Below are positions 7,496 through 52,474 of a stretch of DNA of 64,000 nucleotides, piece by piece. How positions within the stretch are numbered: the stretch's first letter is position 1; the number at the start of each line of letters is the position of its first letter. Source of the DNA: Escherichia coli O127:H6 str. E2348/69 (GTDB lineage Bacteria > Pseudomonadota > Gammaproteobacteria > Enterobacterales > Enterobacteriaceae); NCBI RefSeq assembly GCF_000026545.1, contig NC_011601.1; one strand, 5' to 3'. A program made the position numbers and the translations under genes. Below the pieces are notes generated by a model, which saw nothing but the letters and a program-made list of their open reading frames with translations, was not told the DNA's origin and did no database searches.

Positions 7496-8533
7496 ATGTT
7501 TTCCGCATTGCGCCACCGTACCGCTGCCCTGGCGCTCGGCGTATGCTTTATTCTCCCCGTACACGCCTCGTCACCTAAACCTGGCGATTTTGCTAATACC
7601 CAGGCACGACATATTGCTACTTTCTTTCCGGGACGCATGACCGGAACTCCTGCAGAAATGTTATCTGCCGATTATATTCGCCAACAGTTTCAGCAAATGG
7701 GTTATCGCAGTGATATTCGGACATTTAATAGTCGGTATATTTATACCGCCCGCGATAATCGCAAGAGCTGGCATAACGTGACGGGAAGTACGGTGATTGC
7801 CGCTCATGAAGGCAAAGCGCCGCAGCAGATCATCATTATGGCGCATCTGGATACTTACGCCCCGCTGAGCGATGCTGACGCCGATGCCAATCTCGGCGGG
7901 CTAACGTTACAAGGAATGGATGATAACGCCGCAGGTTTAGGTGTCATGCTGGAACTGGCTGAACGCCTGAAAAATACGCCTACCGAGTATGGTATTCGAT
8001 TTGTGGCGACCAGCGGCGAAGAGGAAGGAAAATTAGGCGCTGAGAATTTACTCAAGCGGATGAGTGACACCGAAAAGAAAAATACGCTGCTGGTGATTAA
8101 TCTCGATAACTTAATTGTTGGCGATAAGCTGTATTTCAACAGTGGCGTAAAAACACCTGAAGCAGTAAGGAAATTAACGCGCGACCGGGCGCTGGCAATT
8201 GCCCGCAGCCATGGAATTGCCGCCACCACAAATCCAGGTTTGAATAAAAACTATCCGAAAGGCACCGGGTGTTGTAATGACGCAGAAATATTCGACAAAG
8301 CCGGTATTGCTGTACTTTCGGTGGAAGCGACTAACTGGAATCTTGGCAATAAGGATGGTTATCAGCAACGCGCAAAAACAGCCGCATTCCCTGCAGGAAA
8401 TAGCTGGCATGACGTAAGACTGGATAATCAACAGCATATTGATAAGGCACTTCCTGGAAGAATAGAACGCCGCTGCCGTGATGTTATGCGGATAATGCTA
8501 CCGCTGGTGAAGGAGCTGGCGAAGGCATCTTAA
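7496..8533 (+). CDS. iap: alkaline phosphatase isozyme conversion aminopeptidase
   Basis: 345-aa ORF with signal peptide and M28 peptidase-like sequence; divergent from cysD as in K-12. Confidence 0.88.
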   Translation: MFSALRHRTAALALGVCFILPVHASSPKPGDFANTQARHIATFFPGRMTGTPAEMLSADYIRQQFQQMGYRSDIRTFNSRYIYTARDNRKSWHNVTGSTVIAAHEGKAPQQIIIMAHLDTYAPLSDADADANLGGLTLQGMDDNAAGLGVMLELAERLKNTPTEYGIRFVATSGEEEGKLGAENLLKRMSDTEKKNTLLVINLDNLIVGDKLYFNSGVKTPEAVRKLTRDRALAIARSHGIAATTNPGLNKNYPKGTGCCNDAEIFDKAGIAVLSVEATNWNLGNKDGYQQRAKTAAFPAGNSWHDVRLDNQQHIDKALPGRIERRCRDVMRIMLPLVKELAKAS

Positions 8534-8871
8534 TGGGTTTGAAATGATTACTCCCTTGCCTGCAGGAAATCAATGCCACCAGAAACAGAGTATAAAAAAG
8601 GGTGCAGGAGACCAAACCATCACAATTCAGTACGCGGGGTTTTACCCCGCGTGGTGGCTACTTCTTCGATTCGTAAGCGAGAACTGCCTTAAACTCCATA
8701 CCACGTTCTCTGATACTCAACTCACACAACGAGTCGCCTACCATCAACGTGAATCCCAGTACTGTACAACACAGTACGATGATTGCCACAAGGGCATATT
8801 TTGTCAGCATGTCTGTGTAAGTTCACAGAGATATTGCAATTGCCTCCGGATAAGTAAGGGGAGATTGCACT

Positions 8872-10146
8872 ATGCAAATGCAGCATCTGATGGTTGGCTA
8901 TCCTAAGTACTACCAAACGGCCGATTATGCGTTGAGGCTTTCAGTGATGGCTGATATAGCAACAATGAGAATGAAGGCTCTGCACTTCTGGGATAAACAC
9001 GGTATTTCTGCAGCTTCTGAAGCCTTTGGCGTGTCCTGCCGCACGCTTTACTGGTGGCGTCAGTTACTGAACAAGGAAGGACCTGAGGGGCTAATCCCGC
9101 ACAGTAAGGCACCTCTGGTGCGACGAAAAAAACACTGGCATCCCGATGTGCTGAAAGAGATTCGACGCCTCAGGACAGAGCTGCCGAACCTCGGTAAAGA
9201 GCAGATTTTTGTTCGCCTGAAGCCCTGGTGCGAACAGCGCTATCTGGCCTGTCCGAGTGTTTCCACCATCGGCAGAATGATCGCTGCCGCACATGATAAA
9301 ATGCGGATGATACCTGTGCGTCTGGGATCGCGGGGGAAGGCACTGCTTGTCAAAAAGCGGTCTGCCAAACCCCGCAGGCCAAAGCACTACCGCCCGGTAA
9401 AGACAGGTGAGCTCATTGGGATGGACGCCATTGAGCTCAGAATGGGCGAACTGCGTCGCTATGTCATCACCATGATCGACGAATGCAGCAATTACGCGCT
9501 GGCGCTGGCTGTGCCGTCACTCAACAGTGATATCGTCAATCACTTCTTCAGCCGCGCAGCCCGGTTGTTCCCGGTCGGTATCAGCCAGATAATCACAGAT
9601 AACGGAAAAGAGTTCCTGGGAAACTTCGACAAAACGCTGCAGGAAGCCGCTATCAAACACCTCTGGACCTATCCCTACACGCCAAAAATGAACGCTATCT
9701 GTGAACGTTTTAACCGGACGTTAAGAGAGCAGTTTATTGAATTTAATGAGATTTTACTCTTTGAAGATCTGGCGCTATTTAACCAGAAGCTGGCGGAATA
9801 TCTGGTGCTGTATAACAGCAAAAGACCCCACAAGGCGCTCGCACTAATGACGCCCGTGGAATATATTTTAAAAGAGAATAAAAATTGCAATATGTGGTGG
9901 ACCCATACAATGTCTTGCCTCCTTGCAAAGAAGAGACTAACATCCGAATTGCTTAGGTTCGAACGTAGGCCTCAGGTTGATAGAAATATCGCCTGGGGCT
10001 TTTGTCCATCTGGAACCTCGCGAATGCTTAACGCCAGACAGCCTCAAGCACCCAACGCCATTCTATACCTGTTAATTTTCCCTGCGATGTTCACCTTTAA
10101 ATGCCGGAATGCTGCTCGCAAAATAAAAACGCCCCATCATTTCTGA
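8872..10146 (+). CDS. IS-like DDE transposase (integrase-core/rve fold, IS481-family-like); C-terminal ~80 codons probably read-through into flanking DNA
   Basis: N-terminal HTH-like segment (GVSCRTLYWWRQ), then integrase catalytic hallmarks (D in MDAIELR, ITDNGKEF, ICERFNRTL). ORF extends into the cysH terminator hairpin at ~10127..10157. Family assignment by motif recognition only. Confidence 0.6.
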   Translation: MQMQHLMVGYPKYYQTADYALRLSVMADIATMRMKALHFWDKHGISAASEAFGVSCRTLYWWRQLLNKEGPEGLIPHSKAPLVRRKKHWHPDVLKEIRRLRTELPNLGKEQIFVRLKPWCEQRYLACPSVSTIGRMIAAAHDKMRMIPVRLGSRGKALLVKKRSAKPRRPKHYRPVKTGELIGMDAIELRMGELRRYVITMIDECSNYALALAVPSLNSDIVNHFFSRAARLFPVGISQIITDNGKEFLGNFDKTLQEAAIKHLWTYPYTPKMNAICERFNRTLREQFIEFNEILLFEDLALFNQKLAEYLVLYNSKRPHKALALMTPVEYILKENKNCNMWWTHTMSCLLAKKRLTSELLRFERRPQVDRNIAWGFCPSGTSRMLNARQPQAPNAILYLLIFPAMFTFKCRNAARKIKTPHHF

Positions 10147-10157
10147 CAGAGGCGTTT
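10127..10157 (-). terminator. putative intrinsic terminator downstream of cysH
   Basis: Inverted repeat AAACGCC / GGCGTTT (17-nt loop) followed on the minus strand by a T-rich run, immediately 3' of cysH stop (10175). Confidence 0.4.
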
Positions 10158-10174
10158 AATTTATCCGGCAATAT

Positions 10175-10909
10175 TTACCCTTCGTGTAATCCACATTCCC
10201 TTTTTAAGCCAAAGAAACGCGTTTCTTCTTCCGCCATGCCGGGTTCCCATTTACGGGTTGTATGGGTATCGCCCACCGATAAATATCCTTCATCCCATAA
10301 TGGGTGATATTTCAGGCCATGTTTTTGCAGGTACTGATAAATAGTTCGGTTATCCCAGTCGATAATCGGCAGCACTTTAAATACGCCACGCTGAATTGCC
10401 AGCACCGGTAAATTGGCGCGACTGCCGGATTGTTCACGGCGCAGGCCAGCAAACCAGGTTTGCGCATTCAGTTCTTTCAGCGCCCGGTTCATCGGTTCGA
10501 CTTTGTTGATGTCATTGTACTTTTCAATGCCTTCAACGCCCTGCTCCCACAGTTTGCCGTAGCGTGCTTCCTGCCAGGCGGCGCTTTCGGTAGCACGATA
10601 CACTTTCAGGTTGAGCTTGAGTTTGTCCGTTAACTCGTCAATAAAGCGGTAGGTTTCCGGGAACAGATAGCCGGTATCGGTGAGGATCACTGGAATATCC
10701 GGGCGAATCTGATTCACCAGATGCAGACTCACCGCCGCCTGAATGCCAAAGCTGGAAGAAAGTACATATTCACCGGGCAGATTATCCAGCGCCCAGGCTA
10801 CGCGGCCTTCAGCGTCCAGTTTTTCCAGTTGGGCGTTAGTTTCCGCCAGCGCCAGAATCCGGTCTACCTTTGGCAGTTCGTTCAGGGCGTTTAGATCGAG
10901 TTTGGACAT
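10175..10909 (-). CDS. cysH: phosphoadenosine phosphosulfate (PAPS) reductase
   Basis: ORF 10175..11062; conserved start [14 protein letters not shown] at internal Met gives 244 aa; C-terminal ECGLH motif. Confidence 0.92.
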
Positions 10910-12695: not shown

Positions 12696-14494
12696 TAGTA
12701 GACATCTCGCTGATAACGGCGCTCTACGCGCAGCTCACTTAAAAATTCATCCGCCGCTTCGGTGTCCATGCCACCAAATTCGGCAATCACTTCCAGAAGT
12801 GCCTGCTCAACGTCTTTCGCCATGCGATTAGCGTCGCCGCAGACATAAATGTGGGCACCGTCATTGATCCAGCGCCACAGCTCTGCGCCCTGTTCGCGCA
12901 GTTTGTCTTGTACGTAAATTTTTTCTTTTTGATCGCGCGACCAGGCGAGATCGATGCGCGTCAGCACGCCTTCTTTGACGTAACGCTGCCATTCCACCTG
13001 GTAGAGGAAATCTTCCGTAAAGTGTGGGTTGCCAAAGAATAGCCAGTTTTTACCCGGCGCTTCGTCGGCAGCACGCTGCTGCATAAAGGCACGGAACGGC
13101 GCGATGCCGGTGCCAGGGCCAATCATGATCACCGGGGTTTCCGGATTGGTTGGCAGGCGGAAGTTGTCGTTATGTTCGATAAAGACGCGGACTTCACCCT
13201 CTTCTTCCACACGATCCGCGAGGAAGCTGGAGGCACCACCGGCACGGGCGCGGCCTTCCACGTCGCAACGCACCACACCAACGGTAACGTGCACTTCGTT
13301 CTCGACTTCCGCCTGCGAGGAGGCGATGGAATACAGGCGCGGGGTCAGCGGGCGCAGCAGATTAATCAGCGCTTCGGCATCCAGTTGCGCCGGAGAGAAA
13401 CGCACCATGTCGACAATCGGCGTCGTCGCGGCGTAATGCTGTAATTTCGCTTTATCGCCCACCAGCGGCAGCAGCGTTTCGCTGCGGGTAAGCGTGGCAT
13501 AGTTCTCAACAATGTTGGCGGTGTTAACGGTCAGTTCGAAGTGCCACTGTAGCGCTTCGTTCAGAGGCAACGTTTTGCCCTCGACGGTGACAGGTTCATC
13601 GCCTTTCAGCCACAGCAGTTCGACAAGTTCTTTCACCAGTGCCGGATCGTTCTGATACCAGACGCCCAGCGCGTCACCCGGCTGGTAACGCAGGCCAGAG
13701 TCACCTAAGTCAATTTCAATGTGACGAACGTCTTTTTCAGAGTTACGCCCGGTAATTTTCTGGTTAACAGAGAGGCTCGCCACCAGCGGCGCGTCTTTGC
13801 TATACGGGCTGGTGTGGATTTCATTTACCGTGCCAGTAGCGACGGATTGCGAAGGTGCCGCGACAGGCGCACGCGATTTAAGCGCATCAACCACGCGGGC
13901 GCGCCACTCGCTGGCAGCAGCCTGGTATTCAACATCGGCATCGACACGGTCGAGCAGGCGTTCACCGCCCAGTTCCGCCAGCTTACTGTCAAAATCTTTC
14001 CCGGACTGGCAGAAAAATTCATAAGAGCTATCGCCGAGGCTAAACACGGCAAACGCGGTGTTTTCCAGCTTTGACGCTTTTTTGGAGAACAGGAACTTAT
14101 GCAGCGCGACGGCTTCTTCCGGCGGTTCCCCTTCCCCTTGCGTTGACGTCACCACGATAAGCAGTTTTTCGCTGGCGATTTGTTTGAATTTATAGTCACC
14201 CGCGTTCACCAGCTTAACGTTCAGTTTTGCCGCTAATAAATCATCGCGTAATGCTTCAGCAACCCGGCGCGCATTGCCGGTTTGCGAGGCGGAGATAATA
14301 GTTATACCCGGCATTTCTGCGGCGGGCGCTGGCGTCGCTGCAAGCGCAGCAGGCTGCTGGTTGAGCACGCCCCAGAAATAGCCAGAAACCCAGGCAAGCA
14401 GGGTAGGAGTTAAATCGGTCGTGGCCGCCTGAAGGCGTGCCAGTTGCTCCGGGTTCAACGGAAGCAACGCGGAAGGTGGGACCTGTGTCGTCAT
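12695..14494 (-). CDS. cysJ: sulfite reductase flavoprotein alpha subunit
   Basis: 599-aa ORF with flavodoxin-like and FAD/NADPH reductase domains. Confidence 0.93.
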
Positions 14495-26133: not shown

Positions 26134-27054
26134 ATGAGCGCAAGAGTATGGGTACTCGGTGATGCGGTTGTTGATTTATTACCCGAAAGCCAGGGGAGAC
26201 TACTACAGTGTCCTGGCGGGGCGCCTGCTAATGTTGCAGTCGGTATCGCAAGGCTGGGGGGGAAAAGTGCCTTTATTGGCAAAGTTGGCGATGATCCTTT
26301 CGGTCGCTTTATGTATCAGACACTGAGTACAGAAAATGTTGATACACGTTATATGTCTCTTGATCCTCAACAACGCACCTCAATTGTGGCTGTAGGACTT
26401 GATGAGCAAGGAGAAAGAAACTTTACCTTTATGGTACGCCCAAGTGCCGATCTTTTTTTACAACCTGATGACCTTCCTACATTTGGGCCGGGTGAATGGC
26501 TCCATCTTTGTTCCATTGCGCTCAGTGCAGAACCTTCCCGAAGTACCGCATTTCTGGCTATGGAGAAAATACGTCAGGCTGGCGGAAACATCAGTTTTGA
26601 TCCCAATATCCGCAGCGATCTCTGGCAGAGTGAAGCGCTATTAAGAAAATACCTTGATCGCGCGCTTTCGCTGGCGAATATCGCTAAATTGTCCGAAGAA
26701 GAGTTGCTATTCATCAGTGGCGAAAGCCAGGTTCAGCAAGGCGCATATTCATTAGTACAACGTTATTCGTTGACTTTATTGCTTATCACACAAGGAAAAA
26801 ATGGCGTACTTGTGTATTTTCAGGGGCAGTTTATCCACTATCCCGCCAAACCTGTTTCTGTCGTCGATACGACCGGGGCAGGAGATGCTTTTGTCGCTGG
26901 ATTACTTGCAGGTCTGGCTGATTCTGGAATACCAACAAATACCAGACAGCTTGAACGAATCATTGCACAAGCTCAGATTTGTGGTGCTCTGGCGACCACG
27001 GCTAAAGGCGCGATGACCGCCTTACCCCGACAACACGATCTCCCTTCACAATAG
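26134..27054 (+). CDS. scrK: fructokinase (ROK/PfkB ribokinase-family)
   Basis: 306-aa ORF with GGAPANVA and C-terminal DTTGAGDAF motifs; first gene of a scr-type cluster. Confidence 0.85.
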   Translation: MSARVWVLGDAVVDLLPESQGRLLQCPGGAPANVAVGIARLGGKSAFIGKVGDDPFGRFMYQTLSTENVDTRYMSLDPQQRTSIVAVGLDEQGERNFTFMVRPSADLFLQPDDLPTFGPGEWLHLCSIALSAEPSRSTAFLAMEKIRQAGGNISFDPNIRSDLWQSEALLRKYLDRALSLANIAKLSEEELLFISGESQVQQGAYSLVQRYSLTLLLITQGKNGVLVYFQGQFIHYPAKPVSVVDTTGAGDAFVAGLLAGLADSGIPTNTRQLERIIAQAQICGALATTAKGAMTALPRQHDLPSQ

Positions 27055-27105
27055 TGATCCTGCTGTTGTATCTGTAACCCGATTTGTCGTGCCTGTCACA
27101 TTTAC

Positions 27106-27177
27106 TAAATCGGTTTAGCGAAAATAATTGCTCTGGCTAAAAAGTCAGCTTTATTATCAACACCTAAACCGGTTTAG
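27106..27177. promoter_or_regulatory. two putative ScrR operators in scrY promoter region
   Basis: CTAAATCGGTTTAG (27106..27119, near-palindrome) and CTAAACCGGTTTAG (27164..27177, perfect 14-bp palindrome), 45-115 bp upstream of scrY. Confidence 0.55.
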
Positions 27178-27197
27178 CATTTTAGCAATTTTTATAA

Positions 27198-28739
<1,542 letters not shown>

Positions 28740-28747
28740 TACCAGAC

Positions 28748-28770
28748 AGCCTCACGGATGTGAGGCTTTT
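28748..28770 (+). terminator. weak hairpin/partial terminator between scrY and scrA
   Basis: AGCCTCAC-GGAT-GTGAGGCT followed by only TTT; may attenuate rather than terminate. Confidence 0.3.
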
Positions 28771-28799
28771 ACTGAAATAACAATGAATTAGAGGGTTAT

Positions 28800-30170
28800 A
28801 TGGATTTCGATAAAATCGCCCAATCGTTGCTTCCTTTATTAGGTGGTAAGGAGAACATCGCCAGTGCAGCACATTGCGCCACTCGCCTACGGCTGGTACT
28901 GGTTGACGACACACTTGCCGATCAACATGCCATTGGCCAGATTGATGGAGTGAAAGGTTGTTTTCGTAATTCAGGGCAAATGCAAATCATCTTTGGCACC
29001 GGCGTGGTTAATAAAGTCTATGCTGCCTTTATTCAGGTTGCAGGTATTAGCGAATCCAGTAAAGCAGATACCGCTCGACTCGCCGCTCAAAAACTCAATC
29101 CTTTTCAGCGAATAGCACGGCTACTTTCTAATATTTTTGTCCCCATCATTCCAGCCATTGTTGCTTCTGGTTTATTAATGGGGCTCCTGGGAATGGTGAA
29201 AACATATGGCTGGGTGAATGCCGATAATGCGATTTATATCCTGCTGGATATGTGCAGTTCAGCCGCATTTATTATTCTCCCCATCCTTATTGGCTTTACT
29301 GCTGCTCGTGAATTTGGTGGAAATCCTTATCTTGGCGCGACATTAGGAGGGATTCTGACTCACCCGGCACTCACAAATGCCTGGGGCGTTGCTGCGGGAT
29401 TTCAGACAATGAACTTCTTCGGTTTTGAAATCGCCATGATTGGCTATCAGGGAACGGTTTTCCCCGTGCTTCTGGCAGTATGGTTTATGAGCATAGTGGA
29501 AAAACAGTTACGCAGGTTTATCCCTGATGCTCTGGATCTCATTCTGACGCCATTTCTGACTGTCGTCATTTCTGGCTTTATCGCTCTTTTGATTATTGGT
29601 CCGGCAGGACGAGCGTTAGGTGACGGTATCTCTTTCGTTCTCAGCACGCTGATTGCACACGCAGGCTGGTTAGCAGGGTTGTTATTCGGCGGGCTATATT
29701 CAGCGATTGTTATTACGGGTATTCATCATAGCTTCCACGCAATTGAAGCAGGACTTTTAGGTAACCCTGCAATCGGTGTTAATTTCCTGCTGCCTATTTG
29801 GGCAATGGCAAACGTTGCGCAAGGAGGTGCATGTCTGGCGGTATGGTTTAAAACCAAAGATACAAAAATTAAAGCAATCACCCTACCCTCGGCCTTTTCC
29901 GCAATGTTAGGGATTACTGAAGCCGCTATTTTTGGTATCAACCTTCGTTTTGTTAAACCTTTTATTGCGGCCTTAATTGGTGGCGCTGCCGGCGGTGCCT
30001 GGGTTGTCTCTGTTCACGTTTATATGACTGCCGTTGGTCTGACCGCAATACCCGGCATGGCAATCGTTCAGCCAACATCGTTGGTTAATTATATTATTGG
30101 AATGGTGATTGCTTTCGCTGTCGCTTTTAGCCTCTCTTTATTACTCAAATACAAAACGGACGAGGAGTAA
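28800..30170 (+). CDS. scrA: PTS sucrose-specific EIIBC component
   Basis: 456-aa ORF; N-terminal EIIB Cys motif (ASAAHCATRLR) followed by multi-TM EIIC domain. Confidence 0.88.
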   Translation: MDFDKIAQSLLPLLGGKENIASAAHCATRLRLVLVDDTLADQHAIGQIDGVKGCFRNSGQMQIIFGTGVVNKVYAAFIQVAGISESSKADTARLAAQKLNPFQRIARLLSNIFVPIIPAIVASGLLMGLLGMVKTYGWVNADNAIYILLDMCSSAAFIILPILIGFTAAREFGGNPYLGATLGGILTHPALTNAWGVAAGFQTMNFFGFEIAMIGYQGTVFPVLLAVWFMSIVEKQLRRFIPDALDLILTPFLTVVISGFIALLIIGPAGRALGDGISFVLSTLIAHAGWLAGLLFGGLYSAIVITGIHHSFHAIEAGLLGNPAIGVNFLLPIWAMANVAQGGACLAVWFKTKDTKIKAITLPSAFSAMLGITEAAIFGINLRFVKPFIAALIGGAAGGAWVVSVHVYMTAVGLTAIPGMAIVQPTSLVNYIIGMVIAFAVAFSLSLLLKYKTDEE

Positions 30171-31579
30171 TGTCGATGCCTTCACAAATGCCCGCGATTT
30201 TACAGGCAGTGATGAAAGGTCAGTCCAAAGCACTGGCAGATGCCCACTATCCTTGTTGGCATCTCGCTCCAGTCACCGGACTAATGAACGATCCAAATGG
30301 CTTTTGTTGGTCTGGAGGCCGCTATCATCTGTTTTATCAATGGAATCCACTGGCTTGTGATCATAAGTACAAATGTTGGGGGCACTGGAGTTCGACGGAT
30401 TTATTGCACTGGCAGCATGAACCATTAGCGCTAATGCCCGATAAAGAGTACGACCGTAATGGTTGTTACTCAGGAAGCGCGGTTAATAATCAGGGCGTTC
30501 TCACACTTTGCTATACCGGTAATGTTAAGTTTGATGATGGCAGCAGAACGGCATGGCAATGCCTGGCCACCGAAAATAACCAGGGCGGGTTTGATAAACT
30601 AGGCCCTGTCATACCGTTACCTGATGGTTACACCGGACATGTTCGTGATCCAAAAGTCTGGAAGCACAACAGCCAATGGTACATGGTGCTTGGCGCGCAA
30701 GATAAAGAGAAACGGGGGAAAGTGCTGCTGTATTCCTCTGTCGATCTCTATACCTGGTCTTTTCATGGAGAAATTGCTGGTAACGGTCTGAATGAAATAG
30801 ATAACGCAGGATACATGTGGGAATGTCCTGATCTTTTCGCCCTTGATGGTGAATACATTCTCCTCTGTTGCCCCCAGGGAATGGTGCGCGAACATGAGCG
30901 CTATCTGAATACTTATCCCTGCGCCTGGCTACATGGACAGTTTGATTACGAGACAGGCAAATTTACGCATGGCGCTTTCTCAGAGCTGGATGCGGGATTT
31001 GAATTCTATGCACCACAGACGATGGAAGCCCCGGACGGGCGACGATTGCTGGTCGGCTGGATGGGGGTTCCTGATGGCGAAGAGATGTTGCAGCCAACCA
31101 GAAAGCATCATTGGCAGCATCAAATGACCTGTTTTCGCGAACTCTCATTCCAGAAGGGAAAATTGTTTCAGATGCCAATCAGGGAACTCGCGCAACTGCG
31201 TGAAGCTGAACACTTCTGGCAAGGAAAAGCGGATCATGCGCCGCATGTCGAAATTGAACGCCTGGAAATGGACATCATTCCGTCGGGTGAGCTGTATCTG
31301 AATTTTGGCAATGCGCTGGCACTGCATCTTAATGACGATGGTATTCAACTACAGAGGAGAAGCCTTGCAGGGCAAGAGAAACTAACTCGTTACTGGCGAG
31401 GAAGCGTAACGTCACTGAAGATTCTCTGTGACAGTTCCAGCGTAGAGATATTCATCAATAATGGTGAAGGTGTAATGAGTAATCGTTATTTTCCCCATCA
31501 TCCAGCTTCGCTGATATTACAGGGTGAGTCTGACGTCACGTTACGCTACTGGTCGCTACGCGCCTGCATGGTAGAATGA
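30170..31579 (+). CDS. scrB: sucrose-6-phosphate hydrolase (GH32 invertase)
   Basis: 469-aa ORF with GH32 signature MNDPNG and downstream W(M)ECPD; start codon choice near 30170 uncertain. Confidence 0.88.
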
Positions 31580-31604
31580 GGGTTTTGAATTACGGATCCT
31601 CGTC

Positions 31605-32612
31605 GTGAGAAAAACCAAACGCGTTACTATTAAAGACATTGCTGAACTGGCGGGAGTGTCGAAAGCAACCGCCAGTCTGGTTCTCAATGGTCGTGGCAAA
31701 GAGTTACGTGTTGCGCAGGAAACGCGTGAGCGTGTGCTGAGTATTGCCCAACAGCAGCATTATCAGCCCAGCATTCATGCCCGCTCATTACGGGACAACC
31801 GCAGTCATACCATTGGTCTCGTCGTTCCTGAAATCACTAACTACGGATTTGCAGTATTTTCCCATGAACTGGAAACATTGTGTCGGGAAGCGGGCGTCCA
31901 GCTCCTCATATCCTGTACTGATGAAAATCCTTCACAGGAAACAATGGTGGTGAACAATATGATTGCCCGCCAGGTTGATGGGTTAATCGTCGCATCCAGT
32001 ATGCTGCATGATAATGACTATCAAAAACTTAGCGAGCAATTACCTGTTGTGTTGTTCGATCGCCACATGAACGGCAGTACATTGCCATTGGTCATTACTG
32101 ACTCTGTTTCTCCCACCGCCGCTCTGGTGGCAGATATTGCACGGAGTCACCCGGATGAATTCTATTTTCTGGGCGGACAACCCCGTTTGTCACCGACTCG
32201 CGATCGACTGGAAGGATTTACACAAGGCTTGCAGCAAGCCGGAGTAACGCTACAACCTGAATGGATTATTCACGGTAATTATCATCCGAGCTCAGGCTAT
32301 GAAATGTTTGCCGCGCTATGCGCTCGTTTAGGACGTCCCCCTAAAGCCTTATTCACTGCCGCTTGTGGATTACTGGAAGGCGTTCTGCGCTATATGAGCC
32401 AATATAATTTACTCGACAGTAAAATACACCTGGCGAGTTTTGATGATCATTACTTGTATGATTCACTTTCGGTAAGAATCGACACAATACAACAGGATAA
32501 TCGCCAACTTGCTTTTCACTGCTTTGAACTTATTTCGCAACTGATTGAAGGTGAAACGCCATCCCCATTACAGCGTTATCTTCCTGCCAGTCTACAAAAA
32601 CGCTACCGATAA
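31605..32612 (+). CDS. scrR: LacI-family transcriptional repressor of the sucrose regulon
   Basis: 335-aa ORF (GTG start) with N-terminal [26 protein letters not shown] and periplasmic-binding-protein-like effector domain. Confidence 0.85.
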
Positions 32613-38707: not shown

Positions 38708-39043
38708 CTACCCAATCAGCACGTTAATTTTGGCTTTAATGAGTTGTAATTCCTCTGGAGCAACTGTTCCTTTCTTCGTTGCTCCTCTTGCCCGCCAGGC
38801 GATACTTTTTACCTGATCAGCTAACGCTACGCCATCACGTTCCTGACCGGATAGAACAACTTCGAACGGATATCCTTTTGATTGCGTTGTACAAGGAACA
38901 CACAGACACATACCTGTTTTGTTGTTGTACATGAACGGACTCAGGACAACAGCCGGACGATGTCCGGCTTGCTCGCTACCTTTTGTCGGGTCAAAATCAA
39001 CCCAAATCAGATCGCCCGTATCGGGTACGTATCGGCTTACCAT
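38708..39043 (-). CDS. mazF: endoribonuclease toxin MazF
   Basis: 111-aa [22 protein letters not shown]..., PemK/MazF fold. Confidence 0.93.
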   Translation of the reverse strand: MVSRYVPDTGDLIWVDFDPTKGSEQAGHRPAVVLSPFMYNNKTGMCLCVPCTTQSKGYPFEVVLSGQERDGVALADQVKSIAWRARGATKKGTVAPEELQLIKAKINVLIG

Positions 39044-39291
39044 TACCAGACTTCCTTATCTTTCGGCTCCCCCCAGTCGATATTCTCGTGGAGGTTTTCC
39101 GGCGTGATGTCGTTGACCAGTTCAGCAAGCGTAAATACGGGCTCTTTACGCACTGGCTCAATAATTAATTTGCCATCCACCAGGTCAATCTTCACTTCAT
39201 CATCAATATTCAGATTGAGCGCCTGCATTAACGTAGCCGGGATCCGCACCGCCGGTGAATTTCCCCAACGCTTTACGCTACTGTGGATCAT
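39043..39291 (-). CDS. mazE: antitoxin MazE
   Basis: 82-aa [21 protein letters not shown]... (AbrB/SpoVT-type); overlaps mazF start. Confidence 0.93.
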
Positions 39292-52105: not shown

Positions 52106-52474
52106 AATAAAAAAAGGGAGCACTGTATTCACAGTGCTCCCGGTTCGTTTCGCAGCATTCCGGCTACTTTTATTGCTCCCTGCTCATCCTTGACAACTTT
52201 TCCTCTGGCCTTACGGCCAATCGTTCATCCTGAACTATTGCTTCCTGCTCACACCACCCCGATGTGATACTTCATCCTGAAGTGTTCCTGGCCTTCCTGA
52301 CCCACCGAATCATCCTGACCGGTTCTCATTCTCCATCCTGGAGGTGTCCTTTAACGCGTCCTGCGTCATCCTCTTCGCTTCATCCAGAAGCCTTTCCCTG
52401 AAACACCATCCTGGTGTGTCCTTCAGAAGTGTCATCATCCTGATGTTCACTTCGTTGTCTGACTCCCTGTCGAC
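52106..52474 (-). ncRNA. csrB: CsrB small regulatory RNA (CsrA-sequestering)
   Basis: ~369 nt; transcript begins GUCGACAGGGAG...; about 18 GGA-containing repeats (seen as CATCCTG/TCCTG on the given strand); ends in hairpin GGGAGCACUGUGAAUACAGUGCUCCC + U7 (A-run 52108..52114). Confidence 0.9.

Follow-up and report, generated by a model that had tools for sequence, protein, structure and literature searches.

An ISKpn28-group insertion sequence at promoter-shaped DNA in the hokX/sokX locus of the cas-less iap-cysH interval of Escherichia coli E2348/69

Introduction

Among bacterial insertion sequences (IS), IS481 and IS1002 of Bordetella choose their targets by sequence, the prototype target being a short palindrome of 6 bp (NCTAGN), and their transposase frame terminates in flanking sequence. 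ISKpn28 of Klebsiella pneumoniae, an element of ~1.1 kb with one DDE transposase gene and the termini TGTGTAAGTTCAC...CCCATACA, carries the core ATATTGCAATT, published as its inverted repeat (PMC6101004), and has been described "upstream of the hol gene" in prophages (PMC6908951). Here we examine an ISKpn28-group element of the IS481 family in Escherichia coli O127:H6 str. E2348/69, within a 64,000-nt stretch of contig NC_011601.1 (the window; positions are counted from its first letter). The element lies between iap and cysH, where K-12 carries a type I-E CRISPR array and cas operon, and it is inserted into a hok/sok type I toxin-antitoxin locus, referred to here as hokX/sokX.

In E. coli and K. 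pneumoniae, insertion hotspots of mobile elements have been found close to hok/sok homologues, for which adaptive disruption has been suggested (Durrant et al., bioRxiv 10.1101/527788). The iap-cysH interval is also well described: phylogroup B2-type strains combine a cas-less interval with hok/sokX beside cysH and sucrose genes at ygcE-queE, hok/sokX adjoins cysH in 90% of surveyed strains, and K-12 retains sokX alone (PMC12736100, a 2025 survey). The interval of E2348/69 matches this B2-type arrangement and differs from it by the added IS alone. An original prediction, made from the letters of the window, held that CRISPR-Cas is missing from the interval and that an IS-like transposase gene marks the point of its deletion or replacement. 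The absence is real; the role given to the IS does not hold. We consider it likely that two unrelated events met at this locus, an old, shared cas-less joint and a recent, lineage-specific IS insertion guided by promoter shape.

Results and discussion

Strain 82.0311 has the cas-less arrangement without an IS, with the sequence ...GTCAGC ATGTC TTGCCTCC... at the empty site. The window has the pentamer ATGTC on both sides of the IS (Table 1). The insertion falls between the Shine-Dalgarno sequence of hok (GGAGG) and its ATG, with no flanking sequence lost. The IS starts with TGTGTAAGTTCAC and finishes with CCCATACA (TGT...ACA ends), and its imperfect terminal inverted repeats have an 11-nt core, ATATTGCAATT, in common. 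The hok open reading frame (ORF) is now 1.1 kb away from its ribosome-binding site, leader and promoter, and its product (RefSeq "Hok/Gef family protein", WP_000956458.1) is the protein of the IS-free allele in 82.0311; we infer that the insertion has silenced hokX. The core promoter and RNA sequence of sok were left intact by the IS. The complement of the hok Shine-Dalgarno sequence shares bases with the -35 element of sok, so that any insertion directed to the sok promoter must detach hok from its translation signals.

Both partners of the toxin-antitoxin locus were identified around the IS. The NCBIfam HokA model matched hokX with E 2.6e-14, at a score below its equivalog cut-off. The Rfam family RF01794 ("sok") matched 9904-10053 on the minus strand (104.6 bits against a threshold of 59); in the alignment, the model represents the hok mRNA leader, its consensus running from GGGUGCUUGAG to the hok AUG, and the match enters the tip of the IS at the junction. 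The predicted Sok-like RNA is complementary to this leader and shaped as a Sok RNA with its own terminator, with a 5' single-stranded tail and a long stem-loop ending in GGGGCUUUU. The fold of 9948-10018 reaches -30 kcal/mol (z -4.5; 0/200 shuffles as stable). No mok frame was found in the uninterrupted locus of 82.0311, where no upstream ORF crosses the hok start.

The choice of this site follows a rule that recurs at other copies. Copies were gathered by exact end patterns in viral and metagenome contigs, by a transposase scan of species-representative genomes and from sampled complete genomes, with one place examined per record, including multi-copy genomes. They fall into ~27 independent site classes, and in most of these the right flank consists of the duplication (5 bp), TTGNNN, 17 nt and TANNNT. 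The right end of the IS lies 5 bp upstream of the TTG, and the orientation never varies: the transposase gene runs in the direction of the promoter-like motif. Information content over the 27 classes is near zero across the duplicated 5 bp and peaks at +6 to +8 (TTG, present in 20-21/27 classes), +27 (G, corresponding to -14), +29/+30 (TA) and +34 (T). Under a strict definition (TTG plus T-A-N3-T at 16-18 nt; background in the window 3.5e-4), 10 of the 13 classes with a perfect 5-bp duplication fit (binomial P = 7e-33). A 14th duplication-flanked class, locus L139, was found afterwards. The non-hok classes together with the AgrB site at L139 fit in 6/8 cases (P about 5e-20).

Many of these targets are hok loci. 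For 24 of the 73 left ends collected, the neighbour is a Hok ORF directed away from the IS and beginning 0-13 nt beyond it; these cases cover nine different hok loci. It is always the left end of the IS that faces the hok start: in the hokA and hokB copies from complete genomes, beside five more Hok ORFs from viral or metagenome contigs, in the hokD copies, where the IS sits just upstream and has duplicated TCTCC, and in E. albertii, where a hokX homologue carries the IS at the same nucleotide (flank 96% and IS 100% identical) in a different left context. At hokA, hokB, hokD and the unnamed hok locus L051, the motif TTGNNN-17-TAANNT is placed as it is at sokX; a further unnamed hok locus, L085, has TTGCAT-17-CATACT. 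A role of hok as cargo of the IS was rejected, the target duplications placing hok outside the element at every site. As a separate observation, E. albertii NBRC 107761 (L017, 144-1094) holds a partial transposase gene ~200 nt past the stop of the hokX homologue, IS4/IS186-like by eye.

Targets without hok show the same register. A prophage site has TTGAAA-17-TAAATT between the Q antiterminator and the holin/endolysin genes, the position of a late promoter, and ISKpn28 itself follows the rule at this late-promoter position in Klebsiella phage KpF5, where the duplication GAGTA directly precedes TTGAAA-17-TAAATT upstream of the holin gene; KpF5 was the only hit in the phage genome collection. 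The IS is also found at TTGGCT-17-TACCAT, 73 nt ahead of sthA, and at two promoter-like intragenic sites. E2348/69 itself has another copy between ybbP and mnmH (L139, E2348/69 variety 2, NZ_LT827011.1 486108-488603), with 5 bp between the IS and TTGAAT-17-TATAAT downstream. Here an AgrB-like antisense RNA (Rfam RF02891, 53.6 bits) starts 7-8 nt past the -10 element, and a DinQ-type type I toxin gene is adjacent. At locus L072, the IS stands 5 bp upstream of TTGACT-17-TATCGT, and the downstream sequence reads as small membrane-protein ORFs and an ORF resembling a class II microcin precursor.

These sites bear on whether the association with hok arises from selection only, toxin-disabling insertions being favoured or tolerated with no true target preference. 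Several hok loci of K-12 are reportedly interrupted by IS150 or IS186, and there, too, hok is said to be disabled by an IS close to, and outside, its reading frame. The mobile-element hotspots near hok/sok homologues, with the adaptive disruption suggested for them, agree with selection as well (bioRxiv 10.1101/527788). Selection would, however, accept any position and orientation, whereas every hok-associated copy shares one orientation and the TTG-17-TAnnnT register. The same register is found at toxin-free sites (the prophage late promoters, sthA and the intragenic sites), and at hokD and hokB the duplication even leaves hok with an adjacent copy of its Shine-Dalgarno sequence. We regard selection alone as highly improbable. 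Compared with the K-12 loci, the element studied here belongs to another IS family, it keeps one position, exact to the nucleotide, with respect to the sok promoter and one orientation, and non-hok promoters are targeted too.

The recent event in E2348/69 would then be the transposition of a 1,096-bp ISKpn28-group element into hokX/sokX, with duplication of ATGTC. The group would select sigma-70-promoter-shaped DNA and insert with 5 bp between its right end and the -35 TTG downstream, its transposase gene co-directional with the promoter. The target here would be the promoter of the Sok antitoxin RNA, whose -35 element coincides in part with the ribosome-binding site of hok on the opposite strand; hok would thereby be cut off from its expression signals, the sok core promoter would be kept and the transposase ORF would read out through sok. 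The motif is bipartite, has -10-like preferences including the G at -14 and tolerates a spacing of 17 or 18 nt, and because of these features we suggest that promoters are recognised as such, most simply through promoter-bound RNA polymerase or the DNA distortion that it causes. Tentatively, we hypothesize that the ISKpn28 group is guided by promoter-bound sigma-70 RNA polymerase, through contact with the holoenzyme or a bend near -40, which could account for the fixed -41/-36 position and the fixed orientation. The element even seems adapted to such sites, in that its stop-less transposase gene would borrow a TGA from a consensus TTGACA -35 element and the core promoter is kept intact.

Direct readout of the target by the transposase is a serious rival to guidance by the polymerase, since both IS ends contain TTGCAA. 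The transposase would read a promoter-like target as DNA (approximately NNNNN-TTG-N18-G-N-TA-N3-T), with no role for RNA polymerase, and the domain that binds the TTGCAA within ATATTGCAATT at both ends could also bind TTGC or TTGA in the target. The frequency of TTG at +6 to +8 and the use of two intragenic sites without known promoter function agree with this reading. It accounts less readily for targets at known or clearly positioned promoters (sok, AgrB, prophage late promoters) and for a second motif that has sigma-70 -10 preferences, including the G at -14, and may lie at a spacing of either 17 or 18 nt with the IS anchored to the TTG. RNA polymerase reads promoters in this way, and for a transposase to do so would be an unlikely coincidence. 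We hold direct readout, too, to be possible rather than probable.

Several points weigh against a promoter-guided insertion. The motif test was framed after the pattern had been seen, yet hindsight of this kind could not produce an effect of this size. Three duplication-flanked classes fall outside the strict definition (L042 and L085 narrowly, L050 clearly), the right flanks at L104, L126 and L127, recovered without their left flanks, are not promoter-like, and neither are those of old degenerate copies at galF-yegH and between iss and iroB of ColV. ISKpn28 has been reported at +91 inside mgrB (PMC6101004). A consensus promoter scan of the interval gave a single hit, inside hok, and missed the sok promoter, which scores 8/12 positions against a threshold of 9. 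The target promoters were identified by the shape of their sequence, and their activity is presumed at all sites. Finally, the survey covers surviving insertions in natural genomes, to which selection will have contributed to some degree.

Copies that lack duplications also depart from the rule. At L038, L045 and L130, full-length, near-identical IS copies have flanks that share no duplication, and these copies probably reflect recombination between copies, i.e. IS-mediated rearrangements; at L130, a regulator gene and ppc, both truncated, are connected by the IS. Neither these three sites nor the degenerate copies fit the rule, as expected because they are recombinant or eroded.

Insertion upstream of a -35 element also bears on how the transposase gene ends. 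The reading frame lacks a stop within the IS. A -35 element of the TTGA type supplies an in-frame TGA two codons past the IS, which gives products of 348 aa (hokA and the intragenic sites; L132, L133, L134). At sokX, the -35 element TTGCCT gives no stop (window 9907-9922), and the product would be 424 aa. RefSeq labels the transposase at the sokX site a pseudogene "missing C-terminus", and identical copies elsewhere are annotated as intact IS481-family proteins of 348-368 aa. On the reading frames compared here, this label is an annotation artefact, the stop codon lying in the target DNA.

The transposase has Pfam matches to rve (1.3e-10) and rve_3 (1.1e-13) and N-terminal helix-turn-helix domains, and its best model match is NCBIfam transpos_IS481 (E 2.5e-65; 220.8 bits, slightly below the curated cut-off of 224); its RefSeq name is the generic "IS481 family transposase". 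The IS differs from ISKpn28 in having only 75% nucleotide and 80% transposase amino-acid identity to it. By the usual ISfinder convention, under which copies of the same IS share about 95% amino-acid or 90% nucleotide identity, these values make the element a relative of ISKpn28 and a separate IS. With IS481 and IS1002 of Bordetella, it shares the DDE integrase-core fold, a length of ~1 kb and a short target duplication. It departs from these prototypes in its target, the 5 bp duplicated by the ISKpn28 group being nearly free of preference and the information lying in a bipartite, promoter-like motif of ~35 bp on one side.

Copies 100% identical to the IS occur at many chromosomal and plasmid sites, in up to 38 places per genome and in 4 in E2348/69. 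The element is mobile and, to judge from these identical copies, evidently active. Strain IAL7255 (NZ_CM130730.1), a human faecal isolate, has the IS in 37 places, and the UTME pig isolates have it in 11-15, with 15 in strain UTME-14. The transposase scan of one genome per species yielded E. albertii, one contaminated contig of a metagenome-assembled genome and distant unrelated transposases only. An exact scan with the plasmid-type right end of ISKpn28 found one locus only, and an ISKpn28 copy on an E. coli plasmid (L129) lies within a mosaic of IS elements and is uninformative on targets.

The iap-cysH interval spans exactly 8534-10174 (1,641 bp; iap ends at 8533 and cysH at 10175), as predicted, and positions 8400-10300 are 100% identical to the E2348/69 chromosome record NZ_CP059840.2. 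The I-E repeat GAGTTCCCCGCGCCAGCGGGGATAAACCG has 0 matches on either strand of the whole 64-kb window with up to 3 mismatches, and none was found inside the interval by a script allowing up to 11 substitutions. Neither Tandem Repeats Finder nor a direct-repeat search detected an array in 8400-10300. RefSeq annotates no cas genes in the identical record across window positions 1-50000, and the notable ORFs of the interval are hok and the transposase. The K-12 layout assumed for comparison is correct, DH1 having iap, the CRISPR array, cas2-cas1-cas6e-cas5e-cas7e-casB-casA-cas3 and cysH; on the repeat searches and the RefSeq annotation, the I-E array and cas operon are missing from this canonical site in E2348/69. 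The second I-E array site (ygcE-queE) is also free of repeats, with sucrose-utilisation genes there instead. E2348/69 is without I-E CRISPR-Cas at both canonical sites in the window, a trait already known for such strains. The interval does hold one long ORF for a DDE (integrase-core) transposase, as the prediction stated, although not as sole occupant, the hokX/sokX toxin-antitoxin locus being there as well.

Alignment of the IS-free, cas-less locus of 82.0311 with the cas-positive loci of DH1 and 2013C-3492 resolved the breakpoints. The left breakpoint lies 11-12 nt past the iap stop, at the point where cas-positive strains enter the last, degenerate repeat of their array. The right breakpoint is window position 8594, where similarity to the cas-positive loci resumes, upstream of cas3. 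Between them is a joint of ~49 nt that is specific to the arrangement in which iap abuts hok; in a sensitive blastn search against both cas-positive reference loci it gave chance-level matches alone. With a probe of 231 nt across the joint (a genome was counted at a coverage of at least 80%), the cas-less iap-hok joint was found in 1,123/5,426 complete E. coli genomes, about one fifth. An IS at this site was found in 33 of the genomes with the joint, and no excision footprint was visible in the 1,090 IS-free cas-less genomes.

These counts decide the role of the IS in the loss of CRISPR-Cas. IS elements cause adjacent deletions, this one is located in an interval without cas, and its copies without target duplications (L038, L045, L130) point to participation in rearrangements; a deletion or replacement ending at the transposase gene would agree with these points. 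It is contradicted by the joint, which 1,123 genomes have in common and only 33 combine with the IS, and which lies ~220 bp to the left of the element. The insertion itself is clean: its 5-bp duplication is intact, and the sequences on its two sides adjoin in the empty site. In cas-positive 2013C-3492, moreover, hok/sok is present between cas3 and cysH; the IS target therefore pre-exists, independent of cas status. The chance that the IS caused or marks the loss is negligible. The absence of CRISPR-Cas is a separate, older and common state, its real breakpoint is the joint, and the IS is unconnected with it.

In the proposed sequence of events, the array and cas operon would have been absent since the old event, with iap joined through the 49-nt joint to hokX/sokX, the neighbour of cysH in most strains. 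The cas-less state could instead be ancestral; other lineages would then have gained the array and cas operon by insertion, and no deletion would have occurred in this one. The joint is unmatched in both cas-positive reference loci, and DH1 and 2013C-3492 have two different I-E cas variants at the one site, as insertion would allow. An I-E system is reportedly present at the equivalent site in Salmonella, which favours ancestral presence, and the left breakpoint comes immediately before the site of the array's degenerate terminal repeat. On balance, an ancestral cas-less state appears rather unlikely.

The K-12-type locus itself shows a further irregularity. In DH1 (13990-14010, compared with window 9905-9915), the hok ORF is missing and hok/sok homology starts at CATGTCTTGCC, at most 1 nt from the insertion point of the IS; the 5 nt that precede the homology, ATACA, are also those of the IS tip. 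An earlier IS-mediated event at this hotspot in K-12-type strains is thereby suggested, although so short a match does not prove it. A search for an IS remnant in the cas3-sokX spacer of K-12 gave nothing significant (best match 14 nt, E 0.4).

Other features of the window are ordinary. The sucrose cluster (26134-32612) comprises a LacI-type regulator, sucrose-6-phosphate hydrolase, a phosphotransferase system IIBC component, a porin and a kinase, and corresponds to the "region C" variant of PMC12736100. The mazEF type II toxin-antitoxin pair downstream of relA (38708-39291) and the gene of the CsrB small RNA (52106-52465, minus strand; Rfam 382 bits) are in their usual positions.

Table 1. 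Features of the iap-cysH interval and its flanks in the window (positions are those of the 64,000-nt stretch)
Feature	Position	Strand	Basis and remarks
iap	7496..8533	+	Left flank; ORF list and RefSeq annotation of the identical E2348/69 record
Cas-less joint, ~49 nt	8545..8593	none	Sequence specific to the arrangement where iap abuts hok
hok 3' untranslated region	8594..8657	-	Hairpin at 8632-8652; read from sequence; collinear with cas-positive hok loci
hokX toxin ORF	8658..8810	-	50 codons + stop, intact; Pfam HOK_GEF 6.3e-10 over the full model
Target duplication ATGTC, left copy	8809..8813		Overlaps hok start codon; comparison with the 82.0311 empty site
IS, 1,096 bp (IS481 family, ISKpn28 group)	8814..9909	+	Bounds from the empty site and other copies
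Transposase ORF	8872..10146	+	346 codons in the IS without a stop; 78 more through sok
Target duplication ATGTC, right copy	9910..9914		Comparison with the 82.0311 empty site
hok mRNA 5' leader	9910..10053	-	Rfam RF01794; severed from the hok ORF by the IS
Putative sok promoter	9915..9943	+	-35 TTGCCT (9915-9920), 17-nt spacer, -10 TAACAT (9938-9943); read from sequence
Sok-like antisense RNA (predicted)	9950..10004	+	5' single-stranded tail, long stem-loop
Terminator-like hairpin of cysH	10132-10151		Terminator scan
cysH	10175..10909	-	Right flank; RefSeq annotation

Conclusions

The absence of CRISPR-Cas from iap-cysH is known and ordinary, and the reason for the position of the IS matters more. 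Nucleotide-precise choice of the upstream edge of a sigma-70 promoter, in one orientation, would be very unusual for bacterial insertion sequences. We found no published description of the IS group responsible or of its -35-edge targeting within an incomplete coverage of the literature on IS481 with hok, on the choice of -35 elements by ISs and on K-12 hok loci with IS150 or IS186. The finding also corrects an annotation habit, by which copies are labelled pseudogenes solely because the stop codon sits in the target DNA.

A functional likeness is found outside the family, among eukaryotic retroelements. Ty3 integrates at a fixed place relative to the transcription initiation site. The same placement is given for Tf1 in PMC3553992. 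Ty3 and Tf1 are long terminal repeat retroelements tethered by transcription factors, whereas the element described here is a bacterial DNA transposon for which tethering is hypothetical. If guidance by the polymerase is true, the ISKpn28 group would be a bacterial counterpart of Ty3/Tf1 promoter targeting and a simple model of transcription-coupled integration, with possible use as a promoter-tagging tool.

For E. coli and K. pneumoniae, target choice by the IS offers an alternative to adaptive toxin loss as an explanation of the published hok/sok hotspots. The sites predicted are strong constitutive promoters of antitoxin small RNAs, prophage late promoters before lysis or toxin genes, and housekeeping promoters; their predicted fate is the loss of input from upstream activators or UP elements, with the core promoter retained. 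Guidance by RNA polymerase, if it holds, would explain mechanically why insertions concentrate at hok/sok and at the promoters of other type I antitoxins.

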